This document shows positions 4,992-61,864 of a stretch of DNA of 64,000 bases, piece by piece. The DNA lies in the IMG/VR virus record IMGVR_UViG_3300027566_000003; one strand, 5' to 3'. Numbering within the stretch: position 1 is the stretch's first letter; each line of letters opens with the position of its first letter. The DNA is from a virus (Duplodnaviria > Caudoviricetes). Below the pieces are notes generated by a model that was not told where the DNA came from, searched no databases, and saw only the letters and a list, made by a program, of their open reading frames with translations. A program made the position numbers and the translations under genes.

Positions 4992-6166
4992 TTTTTGAAT
5001 TTATACGTTTATGTGTAAATTATAAACAGTTTTACTATTAGATACATCAATCATAAATTGAAAGTCTTTCTTAAGATAATCTCTCATTCTCAATTTTGCA
5101 TATTTTATCAGTAATCTTAATATAAGCATCATTCAAACATCTGTACTGATTATATTCTTTTTTACATTTATCTTTAAGTTTATGTAAATCTTTTAATTCT
5201 TTAATCAAATTTTCTAAAAAATCTTCTATAAACTTAATATCCTCTGATTCTAATCCATAATTCAACATCATTTTATTGAAATTATCATACGTATTCATAA
5301 GAGTATTTACCATACTCCTATACGGTCTAAAATCCATTACATAACATCAAATAATTCTTTCGTCTCCAATAATATCATGTGTAAAATTTGTCATTTCATT
5401 TAATTCTTCTTTGTTTCTGATATTTTTTATTTCATTTACCATATACTTAATATCTTCCTTGATTGTTTTAATCATAATTTCTTTCATGTTTTTACTCCTT
5501 CTTGCGTTTGGACGCAACCCTTATTTTTTATTTATTGTTTACATATATTGTTTTTAGAACATATCAACTAAGAATATCCGCCATGTATATTGAATATCAT
5601 AGTATTTTCACATCCTTTCAATATAATAAGGATAAACTGAATACCTATCCATATGCAATCTGCATAATTATTTCTCCTTTTAACTTATTTTTCAATCTCA
5701 TACTCAATTTTTAAATCGAATTCTTTACGACAATTAGGGCATTTACAATTAAAAACTTCAATCTCATATCCATTCTCTTCATAAAAATCTTTAGAGTCAT
5801 AAACTCTATAAAAATTTCTTTCACCACAATTAGGACATTTTTCTGATATTGTTGTATTACTCCATACTGTATTATTTGGGTTATCATTATTTACTGAATA
5901 AATTGTTCGCATTTCTCCGCAAAAATCACCTTCAAATGGAACTATAAAAGTCAATTTAATCTTCCTCCTCTTCATTAGTATCATTTATAACATTGACACT
6001 ATTGGTTATCCCATTATCTCCCAATATTTCATGGATGTCATGTGCTATATCTTTAGCATCTTTTTCAGAATCTACTTCTATGTAGATTTGTAAAATGAAA
6101 TACATATGCTTACTCCTTTTTAAAATCCTTGGAAATGTTTATTTCTTGGCAAGTAAGGGAAAGCAA

Positions 6167-6595
6167 CTATGCTCTCCCACTACTCCCATATCCTCCACGA
6201 TCTTTATCGCCCAAAGTTTTTACTTCTTCAAATTCAATTTCTGGCATTTTTTCAACAATTCTAAATTGGCAAATTCTATCATTAATTTTTATTTCTGTAT
6301 CTCGTAAAGCATAAGCAGGGAAAAACCATTGATCATTATTACCTTTAAATGATTCATCGACTACGCCTTGATGGTTAGTTTGAATTACTCCAAAATGTTT
6401 AAATGTACTTCCTCTCGGTACAATGTGTGCTTCGTTATTTTTCGGAAGTTCCATTCCTACTCCTAGAGGAATTAATTTAAATTCTCCTGCTTTAAGAATA
6501 CAATTAATTGCTGAACGTAGATCAATCCAATCACCATTTTTGAATTTTGTTAATTTATTAATTTGATCACTAAAGTATTTAATTTTAATTTTCAT
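6167..6595 (-). CDS. dut: Trimeric dUTPase
   Basis: Motifs [32 protein letters not shown]. Confidence 0.95.
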
Positions 6596-6628
6596 ATATG
6601 TATTACCTCGCTTTTATTATTTATTAAC

Positions 6629-9337
6629 TTAACGTACAGGACATACCCCTGAACTACATCCATCATTTCCGATATCAAATTCTGTTTCTACTTCTTCATA
6701 TTTACTAATTAAAGAAGGAATAAATGGTTTCATTTCTGAAACTCTTCTATTATACTCTTCCTCTGTAATTGCTTCATACGGCATTAATTTATAAAATGAA
6801 TCAGATAATGATAAGAAACTTACAGCCACAACATCATCCCAATTATTATACATCCATTCTTCTACTTCTCCCCATTCATTATCACGAACCGTAACTGTAA
6901 TTGAAGCATTATGATCTACGTAGCAATCCATAAACATTTTATAATTTTCAAGTTGTTCAATTGCGGATACATCATATTTAGTTCTTCCAATAGGAGATTT
7001 TACAGGAAACTCAATAACTTTTGTTGTACATGTTTCCATTTCTTGACCTACTTCAGGAAATATAGGATAATTCAATTCTTCACAAACTTTAACTAAAGGA
7101 TCATGAGCATTAATTCTCACTCTTCTAATAAACCAATCAGATTCAGAATAATGAACTCCAGATGAAACTCCAGGAATTTGACTCAATGTGCCCTCTGGCT
7201 TGACGGTGGTTATTAATAATGATACTGGAAAACCCAATTCTTCTGCGTAAATTTTAATTGTGTCATGAGCAACTTTGCGTAATTCTCTTAATAATTCAGC
7301 TTCTTGATCTTTTGACATATCGGTAGCATTAACCATGTCTTGCCATCCAGTCAAAGAACATCCAGTAAGTCTATCTCTTTTTTGTATTATATTCCATTTT
7401 GGAAGTTCTAACTCTACGCAAGTCATACGATAACCAGCTTTTGCTGACAGTCTTTGTGCTTCCAATAAAGAAATTAAATCTAATGTACCATCAGAAACAA
7501 AAGCGTATACATTAACTGTTGTTAAGTTGCACAATCCATTTGCATCTAATAAAATTTCGGCACAATTATGTGCAACTACATTTTCTACAATCCCCCAATT
7601 AGTAGATGGTTCTGAAAAATCATAAACCTTTTGCTTATCTAATATTTTAATAGATATTACCGTTGGATTTTTCCCATAATATGCTGATAAATTTTTATTT
7701 AATGATTCTACAGCCTTACATTCTTGACAATTTTCTAACATTAATACGTGATCAGGAGTACATTTAATAACTTTATTATTGCTCAGTTGTACTTCAACAA
7801 TATCTTTTTCTCCATTACACCAAACTTTACCACTAGATATTTCCCCATTTAAATTAACAATCTTAACTTCTTTTCCATCTAATTCTTCAAATGTTTTATA
7901 TCCATCTGAGGTCAATAAATTCATATCGCCAGTGAAACAAGGATTAACCCCATTAAAGTTTGATCTACGTTTATTACCTGTAATTTCATTAACAAAAGCA
8001 GGTTCCCCTGAATATCTCATCTGTTCAACTTGCCAATGAATTTGTTCTCTTGAAGGTTTTTCTTTATAATAGATAGAATTATTACTCATTTGTCTATGAG
8101 ATAGTTCTGAATCTATTTCCCATTTTCCATTAGATGATTGTTTGTATAAGTTGCTTTTTGCTTTAATACATTCATCATCATCTGAATCAATTAAAGCAAT
8201 CAAGCTAGTCCTTCTTACTCCTCCGATTACAACATTTTCACCAATACTTGCCAACATATCTAAACAATTAATTGGTCTAAGTTTAATTTTATCTAATCCT
8301 TGAATGAGTCCTTCTTTGTTAATAATTTTATTTACTTTAGAAAACATTGATTTTAAACTTTCGTACCCTGATGCAGTTCCACCAAATGTCTTTAATCTTT
8401 CTCCTTTTGGTCTAACATAATTGTAATCAAATACAACTGTTTTAATATCTGTAAAGTCTTTATCCCATAATATCTTAAAATAATAATCTAATGCTTGACT
8501 CCAGCCACCCTTGCTATCACCTACAATGATCTTTATCATATTGTTGTTTATGAAAATAATAGATGTATTATCTTCACGTTTATCTTTAAGAACAGGAGTA
8601 TAATCTTTATGAATCACTTCTATATTTGTTTTTACTTTTGGAAGTTTAGATACGTCATTTTTTAAAATTCTAAAACCAAAACCAGAACCAATCATAAGCA
8701 AGTAAAAAGCATCTTTAAAAGATTCAAAGTTATCAATTACGGAGAAACTGCAATTAAAGTTAGAAGTAGGGTATTTTTCTGAAACTAATGTTCCACCTAT
8801 GTATAATGTTCTTCCAGACAAGAATTGTCTAAGATAAAAGATATTATCATATAATTTTTCTGCTTCTTCTACAGAAGTTGGAACTAAACTACAATTGTAT
8901 TCTACAGCCCTTTTTACTGTTTCCCACCAATATTCTCTACGTCCTTCATATGGGAGATATCTACTATATGTACGGTAATAAACAAAACTTCCTAGTTGTT
9001 TCATTGGTGATGGTAGATGTTTATATTTACTAAGGAACTCTTCACTGAGGAGACCTTTCACTTTATTTTTTCTTGTTTTATCCCTTTGATTTCTATAAAT
9101 TATATATCGTTTGGCTACATCTTTTCTATTACTTTCCATTAACATATCTTCTACAAAATCTTGAATATTTTCAACTGAGTATATATCTAGTCCAATAGAC
9201 TCAATTTTATTTGCAATTTCATGACTTAGTTTTGTATCAACACCATCTTTTGTTTCAAGCATAGCATTTTCAATTGCACGAATGATACTATTTTTATCAA
9301 AATCAACTAGTGTACTATTTCTTTTTTGTACCTTCAA
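6629..9337 (-). CDS. nrdJ: Class II (B12-dependent) ribonucleoside-triphosphate reductase with N-terminal ATP cone and an intein
   Basis: ATP cone KVQKRNSTLVDFDKNSI; RTYSR, GGVRR, KPEGTLS; C-terminal CSSGVC; splicing restores NPCAE; no small-subunit gene adjacent. Confidence 0.92.
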   Translation of the reverse strand: MKVQKRNSTLVDFDKNSIIRAIENAMLETKDGVDTKLSHEIANKIESIGLDIYSVENIQDFVEDMLMESNRKDVAKRYIIYRNQRDKTRKNKVKGLLSEEFLSKYKHLPSPMKQLGSFVYYRTYSRYLPYEGRREYWWETVKRAVEYNCSLVPTSVEEAEKLYDNIFYLRQFLSGRTLYIGGTLVSEKYPTSNFNCSFSVIDNFESFKDAFYLLMIGSGFGFRILKNDVSKLPKVKTNIEVIHKDYTPVLKDKREDNTSIIFINNNMIKIIVGDSKGGWSQALDYYFKILWDKDFTDIKTVVFDYNYVRPKGERLKTFGGTASGYESLKSMFSKVNKIINKEGLIQGLDKIKLRPINCLDMLASIGENVVIGGVRRTSLIALIDSDDDECIKAKSNLYKQSSNGKWEIDSELSHRQMSNNSIYYKEKPSREQIHWQVEQMRYSGEPAFVNEITGNKRRSNFNGVNPCFTGDMNLLTSDGYKTFEELDGKEVKIVNLNGEISSGKVWCNGEKDIVEVQLSNNKVIKCTPDHVLMLENCQECKAVESLNKNLSAYYGKNPTVISIKILDKQKVYDFSEPSTNWGIVENVVAHNCAEILLDANGLCNLTTVNVYAFVSDGTLDLISLLEAQRLSAKAGYRMTCVELELPKWNIIQKRDRLTGCSLTGWQDMVNATDMSKDQEAELLRELRKVAHDTIKIYAEELGFPVSLLITTVKPEGTLSQIPGVSSGVHYSESDWFIRRVRINAHDPLVKVCEELNYPIFPEVGQEMETCTTKVIEFPVKSPIGRTKYDVSAIEQLENYKMFMDCYVDHNASITVTVRDNEWGEVEEWMYNNWDDVVAVSFLSLSDSFYKLMPYEAITEEEYNRRVSEMKPFIPSLISKYEEVETEFDIGNDGCSSGVCPVR
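7565..7939 (-). mobile_element. Mini-intein (125 aa, no endonuclease) in nrdJ
   Basis: Begins CFTGDM, ends VYDFSEP...VVAHN; +1 residue is the Cys of NP|CAE. Confidence 0.93.
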
Positions 9338-52660: not shown

Positions 52661-53209
52661 TTATTTTAGTATTGTTACAGTAGCGGTTGTAACTCCAAAT
52701 ATATTTGCCATTTTAGTAGACTTTCTGAAATCACCAATAAACAAATCGATGTGGTTATTTTTTATTAAACCACCTTGATCCAATGCATAATACACATTAT
52801 TATACTTTGTATATTTAGGATCATTAAAAACAATTTTTACTTTGCTGCCAGTTGGGATAATTTTAGGATCTGTTGAAATTACTCTTGCTGAAGATAATGT
52901 ATGCCCTTTTAAATCAAATCCAGAACTAGTGATACCATACTGTGAATTATTTCTTGATTTCTGACAAGATTGGTAAGACAAGTCATACGCCGACACTATG
53001 ACTTCAATTGATGGAATTGGTTTCTTTGTAGTATAATGTTGCGTTTTATGGATTTCATTAATTGGAAAATTTGTTTTAAACTTATATTTCTCTGTTTTAA
53101 TATTGTTTTCAATAATATTATGATTACCTGCTTGACTAACAACTAAAGTAGTGAAGATACACACAAAGATTCCGAATCTTCGTGCTGTGATTAGTTTAGT
53201 TTTCTTCAA
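52661..53209 (-). CDS. Secreted or membrane-anchored 3D-domain protein (peptidoglycan-associated)
   Basis: N-terminal hydrophobic segment; VSAYD, GITSSG, STDPKIIPTGS, ALDQGGLIKNNHIDLF. Confidence 0.85.
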   Translation of the reverse strand: MKKTKLITARRFGIFVCIFTTLVVSQAGNHNIIENNIKTEKYKFKTNFPINEIHKTQHYTTKKPIPSIEVIVSAYDLSYQSCQKSRNNSQYGITSSGFDLKGHTLSSARVISTDPKIIPTGSKVKIVFNDPKYTKYNNVYYALDQGGLIKNNHIDLFIGDFRKSTKMANIFGVTTATVTILK

Positions 53210-53875
53210 TTTTAGTTTCCTCTTTCGTATGTATTTTATTTTTGTTTGATTAGTTGAAATATAAGAGAGAAGGGGCTATTGCCCCATATATTCAATTTTT
53301 CTTTTAATATAATCATCCATCGTCATTCCTCCTTTTATTATTTCATATTTAAATGGACATTTTTTTATCCCCATCTTATGCTCTTTAATCATTACTTCCA
53401 TAATATCAATTTTTTCTATATGGAATTGTATACCAAATTTTATTTTAATTCCCTTATCTCGGAGAACATGCAAACATGTGATTGCATCTAATTCGCTAGA
53501 GTATGTATAAAATCCATTTATAAGCTGTTCTGAAGAAGAATATATATCTTGCTTAGTGATTTCGTCAAATGTAATAGAATTTATCCCCACATAATTCCCC
53601 TTACTGTCCTTAAGCGCATACTCTTCTATTTTCCTCATTACATCTTCTCCTCTTATTTTTATAGTGAAACCAAAACACTTGTTCCTTTCTACACATTGTT
53701 TTAGAACTGTAGTTCGTTCTATGTGTACATACATTATCCCACCTTTCATACTTAATATCAACTTTTTCTTTCCCCTTTATTAGTCAGTCTTTCGACAAAA
53801 TATTACTTTTTAACTAATTTTATTTTTTACCTTATGACAATTTTAAATTTTGGTTAGGGAATCTAACCCCAAATA

Positions 53876-54859
53876 TTACTTTGGGGTTAGACTACTTTTG
53901 TAACTGTCATACATTTCCTTTAAAGAGTTGCCATTTCTTTCATCCAATTCTAAATTCCTGTATAGTTGTTTAAAGTGATCCGGCTTCAATTCCCCTAATT
54001 CTTTCTCCATTGATAAGCATTTATCTAATAAACCACTTTTAAATATAAGAGTTGGTGTTAAGAACTTTACATTTAAATAACTTCTAAAATTTCTAAATCT
54101 TGAACTAATATTTCCTGGAGTCATTCTATCATCATCGCTAAAGAATACGTCCATAGACCTAATAATAAAGGGGGTATCCTTTAGTGGTAAAATAGAAAAT
54201 GTGTCTGTTGCATCACCATTTGATTTATGATAATATTCTTCCTTAGATGCTGCTATTAGGATATCCATAGTTCTTTGATCCACTTGAACTTTTCTTGGTG
54301 AAGGATTTTTAATTAAGTCATCGGGGTCTTTAATAACATTCACTATATTAAATTCTGGAATAAGATCAGTCTTTTTGAGATTTCTTATTTCTTCATAGGA
54401 AAATCCCTCTTTAGTTCTGCCTCTTATTCCTTCGTATAGTAATGCTATTAATGCTTTGTCAACGTAGTTGTGGAGTCTGTTGCAGTAGTCATACATTTGA
54501 TCTCTTGAAATAAATGAATTTTTTTGAGCAACTTTATGGATGTATTTTTTTAAGTCTTCCTTGTTGACTAGTTTCAAAACATTCATTGAAGAATAGTGTT
54601 TATCCAAACAGCACCAGTCTAAATATTGCATAATAATTGCATAAGCTACACCCATTGATCTAAGAGATTTCTTTTTCATTCCAATTAATAAGTCTTTAAT
54701 TTCTTCGTAACTAAAACTACACAAATCTTTATCTAGTTCATACTCAAATCTTCCTACGCTTCTTAAAATAGAAGTGTTTGTTGATCTGGTTGATTCATTT
54801 GGATATTTCTCATTTAAGAAGCAATTTTTACGATCTTCATTAAATAATTTATGATCCAT
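53876..54859 (-). CDS. Integrase-fold repressor, SPbeta YopR/MrpR/SroF-like (327 aa; true ATG at 54859)
   Basis: FNEDRKNCFL...DKDLCSFS...QYLDWC (SAM-like N-terminus), ALIALLYEGI, KFLTPTLIFKSG (recalled YopR: FLTPNTIVRSG); HxxR box degenerate; coupled to the upstream gene. Confidence 0.75.
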   Translation of the reverse strand: MDHKLFNEDRKNCFLNEKYPNESTRSTNTSILRSVGRFEYELDKDLCSFSYEEIKDLLIGMKKKSLRSMGVAYAIIMQYLDWCCLDKHYSSMNVLKLVNKEDLKKYIHKVAQKNSFISRDQMYDYCNRLHNYVDKALIALLYEGIRGRTKEGFSYEEIRNLKKTDLIPEFNIVNVIKDPDDLIKNPSPRKVQVDQRTMDILIAASKEEYYHKSNGDATDTFSILPLKDTPFIIRSMDVFFSDDDRMTPGNISSRFRNFRSYLNVKFLTPTLIFKSGLLDKCLSMEKELGELKPDHFKQLYRNLELDERNGNSLKEMYDSYKSSLTPK

Positions 54860-54860
54860 T

Positions 54861-56210
54861 TTATTGAACCTCCCATTGAGCAACAATAGATTTAAAATAG
54901 TCAGATATTTTATCCATTGTTTTTTTGTTGACATTGTTTTCAATACCAATTTTCTTCCAAATATCGTTTGTTTTGCTAAAGTCTAAAGTTTTTAATATTT
55001 TAGTCAATTGATTTTTCCAATCATCACCATATTTTTGTTTAACTAATTCACCTAAAACAACATATCCAATAAACATATTGTTTGATGAAACATATGAATT
55101 CTCTCTCGCTTCAGTTAATTTACTGTTAAAAGATTCATAATTTACACCAATACAAATATTAAAAAGTTTTATTAAAAACTCTTCTACATTTTCTGACTCT
55201 GTAATAGGTAAATTTTTTAAATCATATACATAATCAATCGTTTTTGACAAAGTGTCAAACGTAACTAGTTTATTTTCAACTTTTAGCTCTTGTTCATTTA
55301 ATCCAATGCGGTTAAACATTTCATTTTTCTTTTGCTTTTCATTAATTGATCTTGCAGTTAACATATTAATATTGCTAGAACTTTTATACTGGATGGATTC
55401 CGGTGGGATGGGTGCTGCCAAACTTTCTTGTTCAATTATTTCATTCGCTCTTTCTTCTGTAACATGATGAATATAAATACTAGTTACCCTCTGAATGTCC
55501 TTACTTTTTTCAATGCATTTTAGCATTCCCCCTGTCCGATTTGCTCCGTCAATTATGTCCACTGACGTAGATATACCATCAGGTTCAATTAATAAGGTTC
55601 TTGCTTTACTATCATATTTAAATTTCTGAATGCCTTTTATCTTGCGTATATTCCATGTTATGGCATTGGGGCAAAACGTATTATTTAACATAGAGTTGGC
55701 GATTTCAGCAACTTTATCTGGGTCAATATCAATGGATTCAATTATTTTGTTTCCACTTTTCCTTTTCTGGAGTGGTCTTTGGGTGTTTGGGTTATATGTT
55801 AATAATCCATTTCCCATATACAAACCAATATTTTGATAAGTTTCTTTTGTACACAACCATTGAGACTCGCTGATTTGGTCAACATTGTGTAACATAATAT
55901 ATTTTACTTTTTCTTCTTCGGTTTTTTGATATGAATCTGCATATGATAATTCAATATCAGTAAACCACTCATTTGGCTTGATTTTTAATTCATGTGTAAA
56001 TTCATAAAGATGTTTTACAAATAAACATAATTCATTTTCTGTGAGATATACTAATGGAGTTACTTTGGTAAATATACCAGTAGTTCTACCTCGACTAATT
56101 CCTTTTTCAATCAACTTAGAAATAACCTTTTCTTGAATCTTAGTATCAACTGAATATTCTTCGACGATTAAATCTAAAACATCTTCAAGTTTTTGACGGT
56201 CTTGCTTCAT
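54861..56210 (-). CDS. DndB/DGQHR-like protein, SPbeta YopQ/SroE-like repressor
   Basis: LLTYNPNTQR, DIIDGANR, LDFSKTNDIWKKIG, versus recalled YopQ LLHYNPNAQR, DVLDGYHR, IDFSKKNKLWDELG; directly upstream of the sroF-like gene. Confidence 0.75.
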   Translation of the reverse strand: MKQDRQKLEDVLDLIVEEYSVDTKIQEKVISKLIEKGISRGRTTGIFTKVTPLVYLTENELCLFVKHLYEFTHELKIKPNEWFTDIELSYADSYQKTEEEKVKYIMLHNVDQISESQWLCTKETYQNIGLYMGNGLLTYNPNTQRPLQKRKSGNKIIESIDIDPDKVAEIANSMLNNTFCPNAITWNIRKIKGIQKFKYDSKARTLLIEPDGISTSVDIIDGANRTGGMLKCIEKSKDIQRVTSIYIHHVTEERANEIIEQESLAAPIPPESIQYKSSSNINMLTARSINEKQKKNEMFNRIGLNEQELKVENKLVTFDTLSKTIDYVYDLKNLPITESENVEEFLIKLFNICIGVNYESFNSKLTEARENSYVSSNNMFIGYVVLGELVKQKYGDDWKNQLTKILKTLDFSKTNDIWKKIGIENNVNKKTMDKISDYFKSIVAQWEVQ

Positions 56211-56239
56211 GTTTATTCCTCCTTGGATATTAATTTAAT

Positions 56240-56290
56240 TGATACATGTAATTTGTATCAATATGTATCAATATGTATCAATATGTATCA
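56240..56290. repeat. Four tandem 10-bp repeats (AT[A/T]TGTATCA) plus one inverted TGATACA, in the sroE-like 5' leader
   Basis: 56251-60 ATTTGTATCA; 56261-70, 56271-80, 56281-90 ATATGTATCA; TGATACA at 56240-46. Confidence 0.9.
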
Positions 56291-56297
56291 TAATTAT

Positions 56298-56326
56298 ATT
56301 ATATAATAGTATAAACAAAAAAGCAA
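56298..56326 (-). promoter_or_regulatory. Promoter for the sroE/sroF-like pair
   Basis: TTGCTT-17 bp-TATAAT immediately upstream of the repeats. Confidence 0.6.
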
Positions 56327-56427
56327 GATATAATTCACTTAAAGATATATGTTATTTGATTATGTTTGGTCTTGTTTTGTTGTGTTGTTATTGGTTGGAT
56401 GGATTTTGGTTTAAGGGTATCGTTGTC

Positions 56428-57135
56428 TTAAGGTTTTTGTTTTGAGTCTAGTAAGGGATAGATATAATTATAACCTATATTAGAAATACTTAGCAACTCT
56501 AAAAGTAAACCGAAACAACTTGATATGACAATTATTTTTATATTAAAGAGCAAGAAGATGGTCATTAATACGGCCCATATGGATAAATAATATAATGACC
56601 ATCGTTTAAATTTATGACGTTCTAATTGTTCTGCAATTGGTTTATTTGGCGTGTCTCTTGGAATATAGCGATAAACTATATATAATGTCATAACAACACA
56701 AAAAATAAATAAATACCAAATTCCTAAAAATGGCCAATATTGGAGAGTGTATTTTACTATTAGCGATGTTGTAATGAATTGAATTAAAGATATTACTGTA
56801 CATTTATTATATGTTTTAAAATGATATCCACCTGCCATTGGTCTTAAAGACATAAAAGTTAAGACTACTACAATGGCAGGTGAAAAGACTCCCAAGATTA
56901 ATGACAACAATACTAATAATAAACCTTTAAATACCGCACCAACAGGAAACATGAATGCTAGACTATATACGCTTATAAGTTCTTCAGTGGTTTTTATTTT
57001 TTTAATATTAAACTTATGAGAGAGTTGTGGAAATACCCCTGCGATCCATCCCCAAGCATATTCAATTTGATCTAATGGTACTTTCTTTACCATTTTATGA
57101 GCTAAATTATTTGATATAATTTGAATTAGATTCAT
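56428..57135 (-). CDS. agrB: AgrB-like autoinducing-peptide processing membrane protease
   Basis: LRPMAGGYHFKTYNKC (R-x-x-A-G-G-x-H...C catalytic signature), PRDTPNKPI, multiple TM segments. Confidence 0.9.
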   Translation of the reverse strand: MNLIQIISNNLAHKMVKKVPLDQIEYAWGWIAGVFPQLSHKFNIKKIKTTEELISVYSLAFMFPVGAVFKGLLLVLLSLILGVFSPAIVVVLTFMSLRPMAGGYHFKTYNKCTVISLIQFITTSLIVKYTLQYWPFLGIWYLFIFCVVMTLYIVYRYIPRDTPNKPIAEQLERHKFKRWSLYYLSIWAVLMTIFLLFNIKIIVISSCFGLLLELLSISNIGYNYIYPLLDSKQKP

Positions 57136-57151
57136 TTAAACTCCTTTCAAT

Positions 57152-57955
57152 TTAGGCAAATGCTACTTGCCTCCCTGTATTATAGTTATTTTGATATTGA
57201 AATGTTTTTTGTGTTCTCTCTTTGTTAAAAGTTTCTAGAACTTCAATAGCAAACTTTTCAGGAACATCTAAAGGAATATATCCGTCTGCCTTACCAAGTC
57301 CAACGGCAACTTTCATCATTAATTCTTTCGAACATTCTGCTACTTTTTCTACTACTCCTGATCCTGAAATTAATCTTCTTTTACTGATTGTGTCTTCTAA
57401 TTCACAACAAATGATAGAATCACATCTTAAACCATGCTCCTTTCCTATAAAAACATGAGTCGGTAATGGCGGTTTACTGCCTACACGACTAGTTATTGCT
57501 AAAACCTTTGTGTTACTACTGAATAAATTACCTTTTGGATTTTGCACCACGAGCACAGGTCGATGTCCTATCACCTCTGAATCAATCCCACTGTCAGAAA
57601 AATTACAAAAATATATTCCTCCACGTTCTATTTTTATATTTCTAATTTTTTCTAAATCATTATTTGTATAATTAGAATATCCACAAGCCAAAGTCAAATC
57701 CTTAAACGAAACTCGCCCTTGAGAATTATCAGAAATTACCTTTAGAAATGTTATATCTGGGTATGTAGACATTTTAGTCTTAATTACACCCTCCATATAA
57801 TCCCCGCTAACCTTACAATCTGCTGCAAAATTATCAATTGATCTATTACCTTTTGCAAGTATAACGTAATTTGCAAGTTTCTTAAAATCTTTTTTAGCAT
57901 TTTCCTCAGTATTAGATTTCCTAGTAATTAATTTGTTAAACATATCAATACACAT
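57152..57955 (-). CDS. Fusion of an N-terminal XRE-like HTH and a C-terminal PemK/MazF endoribonuclease
   Basis: KGNRSIDNFAADCKVS...YPDITFLKVISDNSQGRVSFKDLTLACGY; then ERGGIYF...GHRPVLVVQN...LAITS...LPTHV...DSIICCE. Confidence 0.8.
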   Translation of the reverse strand: MCIDMFNKLITRKSNTEENAKKDFKKLANYVILAKGNRSIDNFAADCKVSGDYMEGVIKTKMSTYPDITFLKVISDNSQGRVSFKDLTLACGYSNYTNNDLEKIRNIKIERGGIYFCNFSDSGIDSEVIGHRPVLVVQNPKGNLFSSNTKVLAITSRVGSKPPLPTHVFIGKEHGLRCDSIICCELEDTISKRRLISGSGVVEKVAECSKELMMKVAVGLGKADGYIPLDVPEKFAIEVLETFNKERTQKTFQYQNNYNTGRQVAFA

Positions 57956-58004
57956 CCTTTTTATTTTTAGTAAGATATTTCAATATTCGGTATTTAATAA
58001 TATA

Positions 58005-58034
58005 ATTATATCTTACAATGGATATGTATGTCAA
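58005..58034 (-). promoter_or_regulatory. Promoter for the HTH-mazF and agrB unit
   Basis: TTGACA-18 bp-TATAAT. Confidence 0.65.
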
Positions 58035-58072
58035 TATATATTTTATTTTTTGTCATTACATTATTTTATGAT

Positions 58073-58100
58073 TATAGGGAAGACCGTAGCCTTCCCTATA
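58073..58100. terminator. Stem-loop just after agrD
   Basis: TATAGGGAAG-8 nt-CTTCCCTATA; no U-tract on the minus strand. Confidence 0.45.
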
Positions 58101-58112
58101 TGTAATATGAAC

Positions 58113-58232
58113 TTATTCGAAACATTTAAGGGTTTCTGGTTGATAACTCCACATTGCGGAAGCTAAACATAAGGAACATACTGTAGCAATTGTGATAAGA
58201 CATCCTGCAATAATAGTATATTTGTTTTTCAT
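58113..58232 (-). CDS. agrD: AgrD-like cyclic autoinducer peptide precursor (39 aa); not in ORF track
   Basis: AAGGAGG RBS; TAATG overlap with the upstream gene; MKNKYTIIAGCLITIATVCSLCLASAMWSYQPETLKCFE*, with a hydrophobic leader and a clostridial-type xxWxY-QP-E..K tail. Confidence 0.8.
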   Translation of the reverse strand: MKNKYTIIAGCLITIATVCSLCLASAMWSYQPETLKCFE

Positions 58233-59062
58233 TAGAATTCACCTCCTTTTTCATTAATTTTTACATCATCCATTACTATATCCTGCGTAGCAAGATTTTC
58301 GTATGTCTGGTGTATTCTTTTTTCAACTTTTAGGATATAATTAACTATTAATAATATAAATGTTATAGTAATCGTCGGGATAATAAACATCATAACTACT
58401 ATAATTAATTGTTCAAAAAACGATAAATTTATTAAAATTAAATCTATTCCTATTAGTTTAATTAAGTAAATCATTGTAATCATTATACCTATCAATAAAC
58501 TAAACATTGATCTTTTTAAGAAACTATTTTTTAGTATTATATCAAATAACTTAATTTTTACATCTTCACTTTTTTTTACTATTAAGTATGTCAATATAGA
58601 ATATTCTATTACTCTTGCTGGTAATGAACATAAAAAATTCAAAATAAAGTTGGAGTTTATGTATAAGATATTTGTTTTTGTGAGAGATAATATTAACGGG
58701 TAGTAGCATTCTAATATTGAAATAATGAAAATTCCTAATATTGTATAAAACAATGCTTTAAAGTATTTAATCTTCTCTTGAAGTAAATTATTATTTTTTA
58801 TAACAACTAATGTTAATAAATATAATACTAGTATACCAGTTATTTGGGCAATAGATTTTGAAATATTTGTTAATCTTGCAAAACTTATTATAAAAGACAT
58901 TCCAATTGCTGGTAAAGCGACCCATTTTATATTATCTTTCCACATTCTGATATCTAATAAATCATCTCTACTTATACCTATTAATACTATTGCTACAACG
59001 AACAATTCTTCTGGTAAACTTACTAAAAACATGTTTAATAAGGCATTAATTGTACTTTGCAT
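58232..59062 (-). CDS. Polytopic membrane protein resembling an AgrC/VirS sensor domain, without kinase domains
   Basis: 276 aa, about 7 hydrophobic segments, short cytoplasmic tail; no H-box or HATPase motifs; translationally coupled to agrD. Confidence 0.6.
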   Translation of the reverse strand: MQSTINALLNMFLVSLPEELFVVAIVLIGISRDDLLDIRMWKDNIKWVALPAIGMSFIISFARLTNISKSIAQITGILVLYLLTLVVIKNNNLLQEKIKYFKALFYTILGIFIISILECYYPLILSLTKTNILYINSNFILNFLCSLPARVIEYSILTYLIVKKSEDVKIKLFDIILKNSFLKRSMFSLLIGIMITMIYLIKLIGIDLILINLSFFEQLIIVVMMFIIPTITITFILLIVNYILKVEKRIHQTYENLATQDIVMDDVKINEKGGEF

Positions 59063-59114
59063 ATGTATCTACTCCCTATCTCTTATTATTTATCTTATTA
59101 TTTATCTTAGGATA

Positions 59115-59144
59115 ATTATACCATATGCAAAGTATATAAGTCAA
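59115..59144 (-). promoter_or_regulatory. Promoter for the sensor-like gene and agrD
   Basis: TTGACT-18 bp-TATAAT with TGn extended -10. Confidence 0.65.
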
Positions 59145-59153
59145 TAAATAATT

Positions 59154-59717
59154 TTATATTTTGTTTATTATATGTATTTGGTTGGACGCTTTTATGGAAT
59201 TGTAAGTAATTATAAATACAAACGATCTGAATATTAAATCCCCTGGCGACATACAACACCATCCGAAATCCCACACATCACAAAGCGGTATCATTTTTGT
59301 AAATTCATCTCCCATTATATGATAGTCTCCATACGGTAATGCTTTAACAAACATATCATGTTTTGCATATCCAGTTGCCCATGAGTTAGAAAAAAATACT
59401 GGCATTTTCCCTGAATTAGCTCTTATTGCAATTGTATTAAGTATACTACCTATCCAAACAAGAGGAATAAAACAAAAATATAACTTCATTTTATTATAAG
59501 ATATCGCCAATAATAAGAAACAACTTAAATAAACAGTTTTAAATAAATATGTATATTTAACTAAAGAATAATCACCTTGCCAAATTGTCGATTCAAGATA
59601 AATGTATAGAAGCACCATAAACATAACAGGGTAAATACTCCATTTTTTAAAAATAGGAAGTATTTTATAGTTATTCCATTTGGCAACTAAAAAAGATAAG
59701 AAAACAGTTTCAATCAT
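59154..59717 (-). CDS. DUF5317-like membrane protein
   Basis: GSILNTIAIRANSGKMPV and LCDVWD...SPGD signature; multi-TM. Confidence 0.65.
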   Translation of the reverse strand: MIETVFLSFLVAKWNNYKILPIFKKWSIYPVMFMVLLYIYLESTIWQGDYSLVKYTYLFKTVYLSCFLLLAISYNKMKLYFCFIPLVWIGSILNTIAIRANSGKMPVFFSNSWATGYAKHDMFVKALPYGDYHIMGDEFTKMIPLCDVWDFGWCCMSPGDLIFRSFVFIITYNSIKASNQIHIINKI

Positions 59718-59764
59718 TCTATATTATTTTCTCCTTTATTATTTATTATTTTATTTATGTATTA

Positions 59765-61381
59765 TTACGGAGGTTCATCATCTTTTTTAATCATATTCTC
59801 ATAGTCTACCAAATACATCCATCTATAACCTTTTGCAAACTCACGAACTTTATTAGTATCTGATCTTATCCTCTTGGTCAAACAACTACTAATTGCAGAG
59901 TTATTCGCAAGACCTAAATCTTTTGTTGCATCTCTCACAGAATTATATTGTTTAACAAATTTATAATCCTTAGATAAACAAATAATTTTTATAGTTCCTG
60001 TTTGATGATAATCATCTGGTTTAATTAAGATATTGTTCCAAATTGAATAACTTATAGCACCTTTAGTTGCTCCTACATATTCAGCAACTTCATCAAAATT
60101 ATAACCATTATCTAATAATCTTTGTGCTTCTTCTACGTCCCAATCTCTTCTTGTATTTTTACTATCATCAATATATTCTGGCATTTCTTTAATATATGGG
60201 AAAAACATCTGTATTGCTTCCAAAGGAGAATAATCTCTGTGGTCTAAATCTATGTAATTATATTTATTATCTATTGCAAATTGCTTTTTAAGTTTATCTC
60301 GCGCCATATGTATTTCATCATCATGATATTCGCTTTGACATTCTATTAATAGATTTAATCTTGGAACATAAATATCATATTTGCTTACACCATTTTTATC
60401 TGTTCTAAATCCTATATCATATTCCCATTTTGTATCATGATCTTCATGCTTAAATACTTGTTTAAGCGTTGTTGCCATTCTAGACTCTACTTTTTCTCTT
60501 ACACATTCAGGACATCCAAAATTACAATTTTTTGCACTATATATTATTTGTGGATAATCTTCATGTTTACACTCTTTACATTTCCACCAAACTTTTGTAC
60601 TGCTTCCTGGGGTATATTCATATGGAGATTTATTATTTTTATCAGACCAAATTTCTATTGTTTGAGGATATAAATATCCTAAACTATCATATTTATGTAC
60701 TTTTACACGCGAATTACAATACCCACACCTCCCTCCACTAATAAATTCTCCGCAAAGAATATCATAACTCCCATGGTAATCTTTTTCTTGGCATTTAATC
60801 CAAACTTTTCTATTAGTATATTTAGTGTATTTAAAAGGGTCAATTGTATTTTTATCATAGTCCCAATATAATTCTAACGCAGTAACACCAAACGAATCTA
60901 TTAAAAATTGTCCAAAACTATCTTTAGGATGTACAGAATTTTGTCCTTTACAATAACTACATCTATTACCTCTTATAAAATCCGAACCACTAATTTGATA
61001 ACTTCCATGATAGTTTTTCTTTCTACAAAAGATATAAAATTTTTTGTAATTATTATAATTAATTTTCCAAGGATCAATGCCTAATTCATTATTCTTCTCA
61101 TAATCCCAATATTCTTTAAGAAAATCTTCTCCTAAATTATCTATCCCCCATTCTGCGAATGTATAACACAATCCACAACTACTTTTAGATTTTCTATTTA
61201 TAATACCAGAAGGACTGACTAACCAATCCTTGCCGCACGTACAAGTATGTAGTATTTTAGTATTAGCACCAATATATTCAACTCCTTCTTTTAACTTTAT
61301 ATTTGTATCATATTTTAAATTATATTCTTCTAATTCTTGTTTATATTGTTCTGTTGTCTTCTTATTAGTTTTCTTAGTCAA
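59765..61381 (-). CDS. Putative homing endonuclease: Zn-ribbon repeats, PD-(D/E)xK-like domain and NUMOD1-like tail
   Basis: Three WDYEKN...K(V)W.(C)...H.SY...R.C.YC units; YDIYVPRLNLLIECQSEYH; KQYNSVRDATKDLG...AISSCL...KGYRWMY. Confidence 0.65.
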   Translation of the reverse strand: MTKKTNKKTTEQYKQELEEYNLKYDTNIKLKEGVEYIGANTKILHTCTCGKDWLVSPSGIINRKSKSSCGLCYTFAEWGIDNLGEDFLKEYWDYEKNNELGIDPWKINYNNYKKFYIFCRKKNYHGSYQISGSDFIRGNRCSYCKGQNSVHPKDSFGQFLIDSFGVTALELYWDYDKNTIDPFKYTKYTNRKVWIKCQEKDYHGSYDILCGEFISGGRCGYCNSRVKVHKYDSLGYLYPQTIEIWSDKNNKSPYEYTPGSSTKVWWKCKECKHEDYPQIIYSAKNCNFGCPECVREKVESRMATTLKQVFKHEDHDTKWEYDIGFRTDKNGVSKYDIYVPRLNLLIECQSEYHDDEIHMARDKLKKQFAIDNKYNYIDLDHRDYSPLEAIQMFFPYIKEMPEYIDDSKNTRRDWDVEEAQRLLDNGYNFDEVAEYVGATKGAISYSIWNNILIKPDDYHQTGTIKIICLSKDYKFVKQYNSVRDATKDLGLANNSAISSCLTKRIRSDTNKVREFAKGYRWMYLVDYENMIKKDDEPP

Positions 61382-61412
61382 TATTTAATTTATTTCCTCC
61401 TCTTTATTTTTA

Positions 61413-61832
61413 TTATGCATAAACTACACCATTTTTATTTCTTAATTCTACCAATCCAAACTGTATACCGATTCCTCTATCAATTCTTAACATAGTTTCC
61501 TCATCGCATTGTCCTATTTTTTCTTCAATCAAATCTCTCGTGACTGGCATGGACTGTTCGCAGAGAGCAATAGAATCCATTTTTAGGCCAGAATTTCTAC
61601 TGATGGGTATATGAGTAGGTAATTTTGATTTTGTGGTCACAGAAGTTAAAGGACATATATGTAGTACATTGGAATATTGATTACAGGCGTTGTTGCTAAT
61701 TATCACTACGGGACGCTTAAATTGTTGGATAGATCCATTACTGTTGGGAAGATTTGCAATATAGATATCGCCCCTCTTAATCTCTTTTTGAGCTTGAACA
61801 TTATTTATTGTTTGTTTCATAATACTAATCAC
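61413..61832 (-). CDS. mazF: Orphan PemK/MazF endoribonuclease
   Basis: KRGDIYIANL...KRPVVIISN...PLTS...LPTHI...DSIALCEQ; no antitoxin-like neighbour. Confidence 0.85.
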   Translation of the reverse strand: MISIMKQTINNVQAQKEIKRGDIYIANLPNSNGSIQQFKRPVVIISNNACNQYSNVLHICPLTSVTTKSKLPTHIPISRNSGLKMDSIALCEQSMPVTRDLIEEKIGQCDEETMLRIDRGIGIQFGLVELRNKNGVVYA

Positions 61833-61864
61833 TCCTTTTTATTTTCTTATGATTAGTATTATGA
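61817..61864 (-). promoter_or_regulatory. Perfect 15-bp inverted repeat that would sequester the mazF start codon region
   Basis: TCATAATACTAATCA 61817-31 / TGATTAGTATTATGA 61850-64; the 18-nt loop holds AAAAAGGAG. Confidence 0.7.

Follow-up and report, generated by a model that had tools for sequence, protein, structure and literature searches.

An agr-type peptide cassette with MazF-family RNases beside a SroE/SroF-like repressor pair in large clostridial phages: a candidate lysis–lysogeny switch

To our knowledge, no phage-made peptide system other than arbitrium has been traced through to the lysis–lysogeny decision, and arbitrium is confined to Bacillus-type phages. In phi3T, AimX and YosL inhibit the MazF of the host, and accumulation of the arbitrium peptide leads to MazF activity that favours lysogeny; most phage mRNAs are degraded, while the sroF-containing operon is spared (PMC10769878; 10.1101/2025.11.27.690993). 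Phage-borne agr genes have been described in the C. difficile phage phiCDHM1, which carries AgrB and AgrD (PMC3901668). Here, we describe a locus in a 64,000-nucleotide stretch of DNA (the window) of the IMG/VR virus record IMGVR_UViG_3300027566_000003, in which an agr-type peptide cassette with two MazF-family proteins lies directly upstream of homologues of the repressors SroE and SroF (YopQ and YopR). A first-pass annotation made from the letters of the window had drawn attention to this region and had named three points for comparison: the gene order of phi3T, in which sroE and sroF lie downstream of aimR–aimP–aimX–sroABCD, the role of MazF in arbitrium (references as above) and the lack of a known link between the phage-borne agr genes of phiCDHM1 and a repressor locus. 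All three are correct; in phiCDHM1, agrBDC lie far from the repressor.

On the minus strand the genes follow each other as MazF, a homing-type endonuclease, DUF5317, a 276-residue membrane protein, a 39-residue AgrD-like open reading frame (ORF), a fusion of an N-terminal domain to PemK, AgrB, YopQ/SroE and YopR/SroF (Table 1). Every gene listed in the first-pass annotation is present in the order given there, as judged from the ORF list and from Pfam and PHROG searches. Relatives of the locus were found by searches with AgrB, YopQ and the membrane protein; they are designated here by L numbers and their genomes by G numbers. The cassette adjoins yopQ–yopR in the window and in L004, L005, L006–8, L009, L010–13, L014–15, L019–20, L023 (a Clostridium metagenome-assembled genome, MAG) and L032 (a Clostridiaceae genome). 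The layout is shared by about ten separate contigs of phages or prophages. The agr genes are thus co-conserved with sroEF among relatives; the opposite outcome was one of those that the first-pass annotation had named as speaking against its reading. The common set consists of MazF, usually DUF5317 (in nine of the ten related cassettes; absent in L014), the membrane protein, an ORF of 35–42 residues, the PemK fusion and AgrB. Two gene orders occur, with AgrB placed upstream of DUF5317 in L005 and L019. All ORFs are intact in these divergent contigs, and the translational coupling between the membrane protein and agrD is retained. We are close to certain of the cassette itself, of its conservation and of its linkage to the repressors. 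In the Tsamsa-type Bacillus phages that carry YopR homologues, nothing comparable is found upstream.

The cassette and the repressors have been exchanged against each other. L005 and L006 have YopQ and YopR proteins that are 96% and 91% identical and flanking DNA that is 85–93% identical, while from the stand-alone mazF through the MazF fusion their proteins are 24–38% identical and the DNA is unalignable. L014 shows the reverse, a similar cassette next to YopQ/YopR that are 25% identical. From these two patterns, a block of about 4 kb that includes both MazF genes behaves as one exchangeable unit beside the repressor pair. Over 45 phage pairs, the identity of AgrD correlates with that of the MazF fusion (Spearman coefficient 0.76), the membrane protein (0.69) and AgrB (0.64), and not with that of YopQ (−0.19) or YopR (0.10); these values are descriptive, with linkage and shared ancestry not removed.

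The labels sroE-like and sroF-like given to the two downstream genes have held, both proteins being true homologues of their phi3T counterparts. In BLASTP, the YopQ homologue is 25% identical to phi3T YopQ (E = 3e-18) and the YopR homologue is 29% identical to phi3T SroF (E = 1e-28). The latter also contains both MrpR domains and matches MrpR/YopR/CB-domain structures in the PDB at 1e-14, and YopQ of the relatives matches DndB. The genes yopQ and yopR abut or overlap in all relatives. In the window, the YopR frame is open from 54949 and its probable start is an ATG at 54859, right after the yopQ stop. By homology, the pair would maintain lysogeny as repressors. On the 3' side of yopR all relatives have a small unknown ORF and a 3D-domain (cell-wall-binding, lytic-transglycosylase-like) protein (53276–53761 and 52661–53209 in the window). 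The small ORF, one ORF downstream of sroF, has the position of the Sar/YopT antirepressor in phi3T/SPbeta, a likeness that is positional only. A depletion of UACAU in yopQR was considered as a signal of MazF avoidance and set aside: relative to flanking DNA 11 sites are observed and about 40 expected in seven loci, a post hoc comparison of non-independent loci. Against synonymous-codon shuffles the effect is weak (2 versus 9.4 in YopR and 9 versus 14.8 in YopQ, again post hoc in seven non-independent loci), and UACAU is the motif of B. subtilis MazF, from which the specificity of the phage MazF may differ.

The catalytic motif R..GG.H-x6-C is kept in ten phage AgrBs, covering all relatives, as well as in AgrB of phiCDHM1. 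The 39-residue ORF overlaps the membrane-protein gene as TAATG and is preceded by GGAGG. Its agrD label stands at the motif level (a Ser at position −5 relative to [YHN][QE][PS]) and not at the level of the Pfam AgrD model, which gives no match to it. Ten homologous small ORFs at the same position each combine a hydrophobic leader with a tail of the form [YHN][QE][PS]…P[KN]C, in which the Cys is conserved. The residue five positions before [YHN][QE][PS] is Ser in nine of these ten and Cys in L005; Ser is also found in L017, a contig of bacterial appearance, and Thr in the short contig L021. The five-residue segments include SAMWS in the window (before YQPE) and SAMWT, CLAAW, SWAFS, SYFWT, SWLFS, SWFWL and SAIIW elsewhere, and the putative host genus has a chromosomally encoded AgrD with CFWFS-YQPEEPKC. 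The conserved Ser/Cys at −5 together with this likeness to the host AgrD makes a five-membered ring, mostly an oxygen lactone, the likely product, and for the window a serine lactone of SAMWS is predicted. It is likely, in our judgement, that the cassette makes a secreted cyclic peptide. Four of the ring sequences (SAMWT, CLAAW, SWAFS and SWLFS) belong to phage contigs from a single metagenome, 3300024999; co-occurring, differing peptides are likewise the pattern of arbitrium.

Both MazF proteins score above the PemK cut-off, which bears out the earlier statement that the phage brings its own MazF domains. The stand-alone protein gives full-length matches to B. anthracis PemK and B. subtilis EndoA (2e-19 to 2e-17), and the PemK domain of the fusion matches MazF/EndoA structures in profile searches at about 1e-24. 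Among solved structures, both domains are closest to B. subtilis/B. anthracis MazF (EndoA), and the alignments show RP and T preserved in them. These Arg and Thr residues are presumably the catalytic positions described in the B. subtilis MazF literature; the Arg is replaced by His in L005. No MazE antitoxin gene was recognized: in five phages, the ORFs upstream of the stand-alone mazF fall into no Pfam family and do not correspond in length (the one in the window has 130 residues and likewise no Pfam family), and the MazF fusion has no separate partner gene in the window or its relatives. The N-terminal domain of the fusion, about 100 residues and helical, had been annotated as a helix-turn-helix (HTH), a label that we keep as probable only. 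It is favoured by matches to phrog_18248 ('transcriptional regulator', 5e-5) in seven of eight relatives and by weak hints of XRE/CI families from a language model. Neither Pfam nor PDB profiles give a meaningful match to this domain, and its AlphaFold2 (AF2) model has a predicted local distance difference test (pLDDT) score below 50.

The two MazF proteins of the window are about 33% identical to each other, yet they have a common C-terminal tail beyond the PemK fold, (N/Q)-V-[AV]-[YF]-A, sometimes with one further residue. It is encoded at 61413–61440 (VVYA) and 57152–57170 (QVAFA) and is also present in L005, L006, L009, L010, L014, L019 and L023; it is absent in L032 and in CST027 of the Clostridium phage c-st. 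The tail resembles an ssrA-like C-terminal degron. If it is one, these antitoxin-less MazF toxins would be short-lived.

The label that did not survive is that of an AgrC-like sensor domain for the 276-residue membrane protein. The protein has no Pfam, NCBIfam or PDB match, hhalign against the AgrC of phiCDHM1 gives a probability of 0.2 and Foldseek on AFDB finds no AgrC. A profile search of 1.84 billion representatives yields a family of 227 relatives (representative clusters), mostly viral. The 150 of these that were listed range from 56 to 326 residues and none is fused to a kinase, from which the absence of a kinase appears to be native to the family and not the result of truncation. An AgrC-type HATPase_c_5 domain was not found in the 94-kb record to which the window belongs (G000, 56% complete), in G001, in G002 or in c-st, and the record has no match to the AgrA-type LytTR domain (PF04397).

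The 276-residue protein is instead a candidate receptor for the peptide, the alternative being an accessory of biosynthesis or export. Orphan receptors are common in quorum-sensing systems, and orphan second copies of the membrane protein (263–299 residues) are present in four phages, L006 (10647–11456), L010/12 (10770–11621 in L010), L005 (6905–7804) and L019 (8036–8827). They lie between the cassette and yopQ in the conserved flank with no AgrD-like ORF after them; the window phage has no such copy. They are 48–89% identical to each other and 43–49% identical to the cassette copies of L010 and L023. A receptor role is favoured because orphan copies lacking agrD are harder to explain as biosynthetic helpers, because the membrane protein co-varies with the peptide and because a single host receptor would make it difficult for co-occurring phages to keep such diverse peptides. 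A related pair was seen in L017 (ENA ERZ27245370 k141_86107, 6001–7080), where a 313-residue family member is joined by a 39-residue AgrD-like ORF (SFWFA before YQP) beside pta–ackA and ribosomal genes. This contig ends directly after the small ORF, and the pair could be a chromosomal (non-phage) version or a prophage junction.

A chromosomal locus points to the source of the cassette. In the Clostridium MAG that contains a related prophage, DUF5317, a 161-residue membrane protein, AgrB and AgrD are followed by a multi-pass GGDEF/HD-GYP membrane protein (L025, G003:C175 340–3570), an arrangement that hints at a link between agr peptides and cyclic di-GMP. A second agr locus of the same MAG has an AgrC-like kinase beside AgrB (L026, G003:C181). 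Between the DUF5317 of the phage and the copy that heads the first locus, identity is 45% (E = 1e-48). A match of moderate strength links the first ∼150 residues of the phage membrane protein to the profile of the 161-residue family (hhalign E = 1e-4, probability 57%, 134 columns), and both have the N-terminal PE motif. In C. perfringens, CPE1563–CPE1562–agrB–agrD form a co-transcribed four-gene operon (PMC2706048). Most simply, judging from these alignments, the phage would have taken up an agr locus of its clostridial host and remodelled it into the cassette. DUF5317, and probably also the membrane protein, would derive from that four-gene locus, in which neither is a known receptor. Remodelling would have added ∼110 residues to the membrane protein (extra helices and a cytoplasmic tail), moved agrD directly behind it and inserted the MazF fusion. 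Such an origin explains the presence of DUF5317; it also means that the membrane protein may be an accessory of peptide production.

The arrangement suggests the following mechanism. AgrB would convert the 39-residue AgrD into a Ser-linked five-residue lactone that is released, as the catalytic and peptide motifs indicate, and the peptide would build up as more cells become infected or lysogenic. The enlarged membrane protein of the phage would sense it without a kinase, a step suggested by the co-variation, the pherotype diversity and the orphan paralogues. The output would be a changed activity or availability of the HTH-like::MazF fusion, of the stand-alone MazF or of both, and by analogy with phi3T the MazF RNase would shift the balance of phage transcripts towards SroE/SroF-mediated lysogeny. 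We infer this chain, from peptide through MazF activity and sroEF expression to lysogeny, from position, co-inheritance and analogy. We put the chances at about even that the signal feeds the lysis–lysogeny decision. A more specific version is rather doubtful: a receptor derived from an agr accessory protein would respond to the serine lactone and control the HTH::MazF protein directly through a kinase-independent pathway, with the orphan copies hearing the peptides of other phages, so that a second phage communication system of independent origin would set lysis versus lysogeny in Clostridium phages by means of phage-encoded MazF. Of the convergent alternative to arbitrium proposed in the first-pass annotation, what stands is an agr cassette with MazF directly upstream of SroE/SroF, in the place of aimR–aimP and in about ten contigs; what falls is the AgrC sensor.

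Several points weigh against a peptide-controlled switch of this kind. With AgrC homology dropped after sequence, profile and fold searches all came back empty, the candidate sensor is a protein whose N-terminal half, like DUF5317, resembles a gene product of the host agr locus, and both may be production accessories. In C. perfringens, VirS is the presumed receptor of the autoinducing peptide. The co-transcribed upstream ORFs of the agr operon in that species have no known receptor role (PMC2706048). Direct contact between the membrane protein and the MazF fusion, one conceivable route of transduction, has a score of 0.00 in a complex prediction, which speaks neither for nor against binding. 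The N-terminal domain of the fusion is probably an XRE/CI-type HTH, and this assignment is weak. The co-variation within the cassette could be plain physical linkage, the repeats that might serve as the yopQ operator are not conserved (relatives have different inverted repeats at that position) and no RNA runs containing the region were found. Finally, genes beside a prophage repressor stand at a classic site for lysogen-expressed defence or exclusion genes, as in lambda, where rexAB beside cI are transcribed in the lysogen.

This last point leads to an explanation in which a density signal and two MazF RNases provide quorum-tuned abortive infection or superinfection exclusion in the lysogen. 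Both MazF proteins lack antitoxin genes and lie inside the swapped cassette, and the fast diversification and exchange of cassettes seen here are what defence loci typically show. Homing endonucleases have entered the region, and MazF is an anti-phage defence toxin in B. subtilis (PMC10769878). Defence does not, however, require peptide pherotypes with co-varying partners or orphan copies of the membrane protein. The cassette also has the position relative to sroE/sroF that arbitrium has, and c-st keeps MazF beside YopQR without any peptide genes; we regard this explanation as unlikely. The cassette might otherwise be a host-manipulation moron with nothing of a clostridial agr system but its production half (DUF5317, the membrane protein as an accessory, AgrB and AgrD). 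Its peptide would activate or block host agr receptors and so alter host physiology, such as sporulation and exoproducts, to the advantage of the prophage, the membrane protein being no receptor at all. The likeness of DUF5317 and of the N-terminal half of the membrane protein to their host counterparts fits such a role. So do the two agr loci of the putative host MAG (one with the AgrC-like kinase and one with the membrane GGDEF/HD-GYP protein), the YQP..PKC tail common to phage and host AgrD, and the lack of any kinase or LytTR gene found in the 94-kb record. However, the peptides of co-occurring phages differ widely and mostly have Ser in place of the host Cys, which is unexpected for a single host receptor, the membrane protein has ∼110 extra residues and orphan copies in four phages, and both MazF genes are co-inherited with the peptide genes. 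A role in host manipulation alone seems improbable to us. A chance or decaying cluster of horizontally acquired host genes near the repressor, with no joint function, has nothing in its favour but the mosaic nature of phage genomes at large. Intact ORFs in about ten divergent contigs, retained coupling and conserved catalytic motifs disfavour such a cluster, to the point that we find it barely credible.

Table 1. Features of the cassette and the repressor pair, with positions in the window
Feature	Position	Strand	Evidence
Stand-alone MazF/PemK endoribonuclease, 139 residues from GTG (start uncertain)	61413–61832	-	PemK_toxin 9.7e-25
538-residue DUF4379 x3 zinc-ribbon/NUMOD/HNH-like endonuclease	59765–61381	-	Domain matches
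DUF5317 membrane protein	59154–59717	-	PF17248 1.9e-15
276-residue multi-pass membrane protein with short cytoplasmic tail, without kinase domain	58232–59062	-	AF2 pLDDT 72, all-helical
39-residue AgrD-like prepeptide ORF	58113–58232	-	TAATG coupling, GGAGG ribosome-binding site, motif
Consensus sigma-70-type promoter TTGACA-18-TATAAT ahead of the MazF fusion/AgrB pair	58005–58034	-	12/12 match
267-residue N-domain::PemK fusion, PemK at residues 110–220, tail ending QVAFA	57152–57955	-	PemK 4.3e-18
AgrB peptidase/cyclase	56428–57135	-	PF04647 3.3e-33
Repeat array, four direct TGATACATAT + inverted copy	56240–56290	-	10-bp spacing
YopQ/SroE homologue, 449 residues, DndB-like	54861–56210	-	phrog_5732 4e-62
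YopR/SroF/MrpR homologue, integrase-like repressor	53876–54949	-	MrpR_N_CB 1e-17, MrpR_C_cat 2e-8

A hairpin lies 3' of the agrD ORF, just upstream of the consensus promoter. The TGATACATAT array is situated between a promoter-like site and the yopQ ribosome-binding site, and it could be an operator, an RNase target or both. In the likely yopQ leader this array contains four TACAT (UACAU in RNA, the B. subtilis MazF site), compared with ∼0.35–0.7 expected; the equivalent leader of the relatives contains one. No known RNA families were found between 53000 and 62600. The 538-residue endonuclease is probably a mobile homing-type insertion and not part of the core cassette: it is absent at this place in L009, and other or shorter genes take its place in L006, L010 and L014. 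Homing-type endonuclease genes are found at differing places in or beside the cassettes, DUF4379/NUMOD/HNH-like in the window and GIY-YIG/NUMOD3 in L004 (8814–9590), and their shifting positions suggest active intron-less homing in the region.

The window is part of a 94,410-base record with a CheckV completeness of 56%, which originates from a groundwater metagenome. The G+C content of the window is ∼28% and nearly every gene is on the minus strand. Its replication and nucleotide genes are SPbeta-like and include a family-B-type DNA polymerase, RecJ, a DnaB-like helicase, ribonucleotide reductase, an NAD ligase and methyltransferases. Close to one end of the record, outside the window, there is a large serine recombinase (L024, G000:C1:1153–1497; a 541-residue open frame with a 'Recombinase' domain at 5.9e-23), consistent with an SprA-like integrase and a temperate lifestyle. 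The YopR homologue matches phi3T/SPbeta phages, B. cereus-group phages and the Clostridium phage c-st at 26–30% identity. The replication genes, the recombinase and these matches together point to a large temperate phage in the style of SPbeta and c-st. Close relatives of the module occur in one Clostridium MAG and one Clostridiaceae genome, and host-type homologues come from the C. estertheticum/C. tagluense/C. psychrophilum group. The membrane-protein family is present in three of 391 Clostridiaceae genomes searched (G003, G343 and G278); in G003 and G343, the two for which the context was read, it is phage-like. Megablast of the whole region against deposited phage genomes gave no match, and tblastn with AgrB and the 276-residue membrane protein of the window detected no homologue in 50,697 deposited phage records.

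No prior description of the module was found among deposited phage genomes or in the literature, where searches on phage agr genes in connection with arbitrium, lysogeny, prophages or viral contigs gave phiCDHM1, reviews and papers on other subjects. One review mentions agr homologues in 'SPbeta-like phages' loosely and without a relevant source, and 'DUF5317' is not mentioned in the literature searched. At the position that arbitrium occupies in Bacillus phages, a clade of large Clostridium phages combines another, predicted peptide chemistry and another candidate receptor with the MazF RNase family and the SroE/SroF repressors. If functional, the locus would mean that phage–phage communication evolved at least twice around a SroE/SroF–MazF core, it would give agr-type signalling that needs no histidine kinase a concrete example open to testing, and it would explain the MazF gene beside yopQ–yopR in c-st. 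The swapped cassettes, the pherotypes and the orphan copies of the membrane protein provide natural material for specificity experiments.

The closest parallel is arbitrium as found in SPbeta and phi3T (aimR–aimP–aimX with sroA–F). In both systems a secreted-peptide module lies directly upstream of SroE–SroF, the MazF family is involved, the peptides differ between phages and the carrier is a large temperate phage with a serine recombinase. The components are different. Arbitrium uses the tetratricopeptide-repeat (TPR) receptor AimR and the linear peptide AimP, sensed after import by Opp, while the window phage has an AgrD/AgrB-type, probably cyclic peptide and a candidate membrane receptor that would sense it from outside the cell. 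Arbitrium acts through the MazF of a Bacillus host, while two MazF proteins are encoded by the phage itself here and the host is Clostridium. The first-pass statement that no aimR or aimP is present agrees with our search, in which the phi3T AimR query finds nothing in the 94-kb record; the genes upstream of yopQ are of the agr/MazF type.

phiCDHM1 resembles the window phage in carrying AgrB and AgrD without AgrA (PMC3901668). It differs in having a full AgrC histidine kinase, in placing its agr genes after the lysis genes, several kilobases and genes from the repressor, and in lacking both MazF and YopQ/YopR. The clostridial four-gene operon of L025 likewise has DUF5317 and AgrB, a small membrane protein with weak homology to that of the phage, and an AgrD whose five-residue ring precedes YQPEEPKC; CPE1563–CPE1562–agrB–agrD of C. 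perfringens matches this host locus in gene layout. The phage version has a membrane protein that is ∼110 residues longer, Ser instead of Cys in most phages and a different order, in which the membrane-protein gene is followed directly by agrD, then by the MazF fusion and agrB. Eavesdropping phages of the VP882 VqmA-Phi type also tie their life cycle to a diffusible signal. They have a cytoplasmic receptor only and respond to a host-made small molecule, while the window phage encodes the synthase and the precursor itself.

In c-st (L001, NC_007581, 6874–11068, CST027–CST030), a MazF-like gene, one unknown gene, YopQ and YopR follow each other in the order of the window locus (YopR 26% identical), without AgrB, AgrD, DUF5317 or the membrane protein. 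CST027 has PemK at its N-terminus and a 90-residue C-terminal extension, in contrast to the N-terminal extension of the fusion in the window. CST028 has 218 residues and belongs to no family, and Bro-N and P22 antirepressor-like genes lie upstream of the c-st locus. Judged by its genes, c-st appears to have a peptide-less version of the switch region. Since c-st keeps MazF–X–YopQ–YopR without agr genes, the association of MazF with the repressors in clostridial phages is not an accident of one genome, and the linkage would predate the peptide genes or be independent of them.

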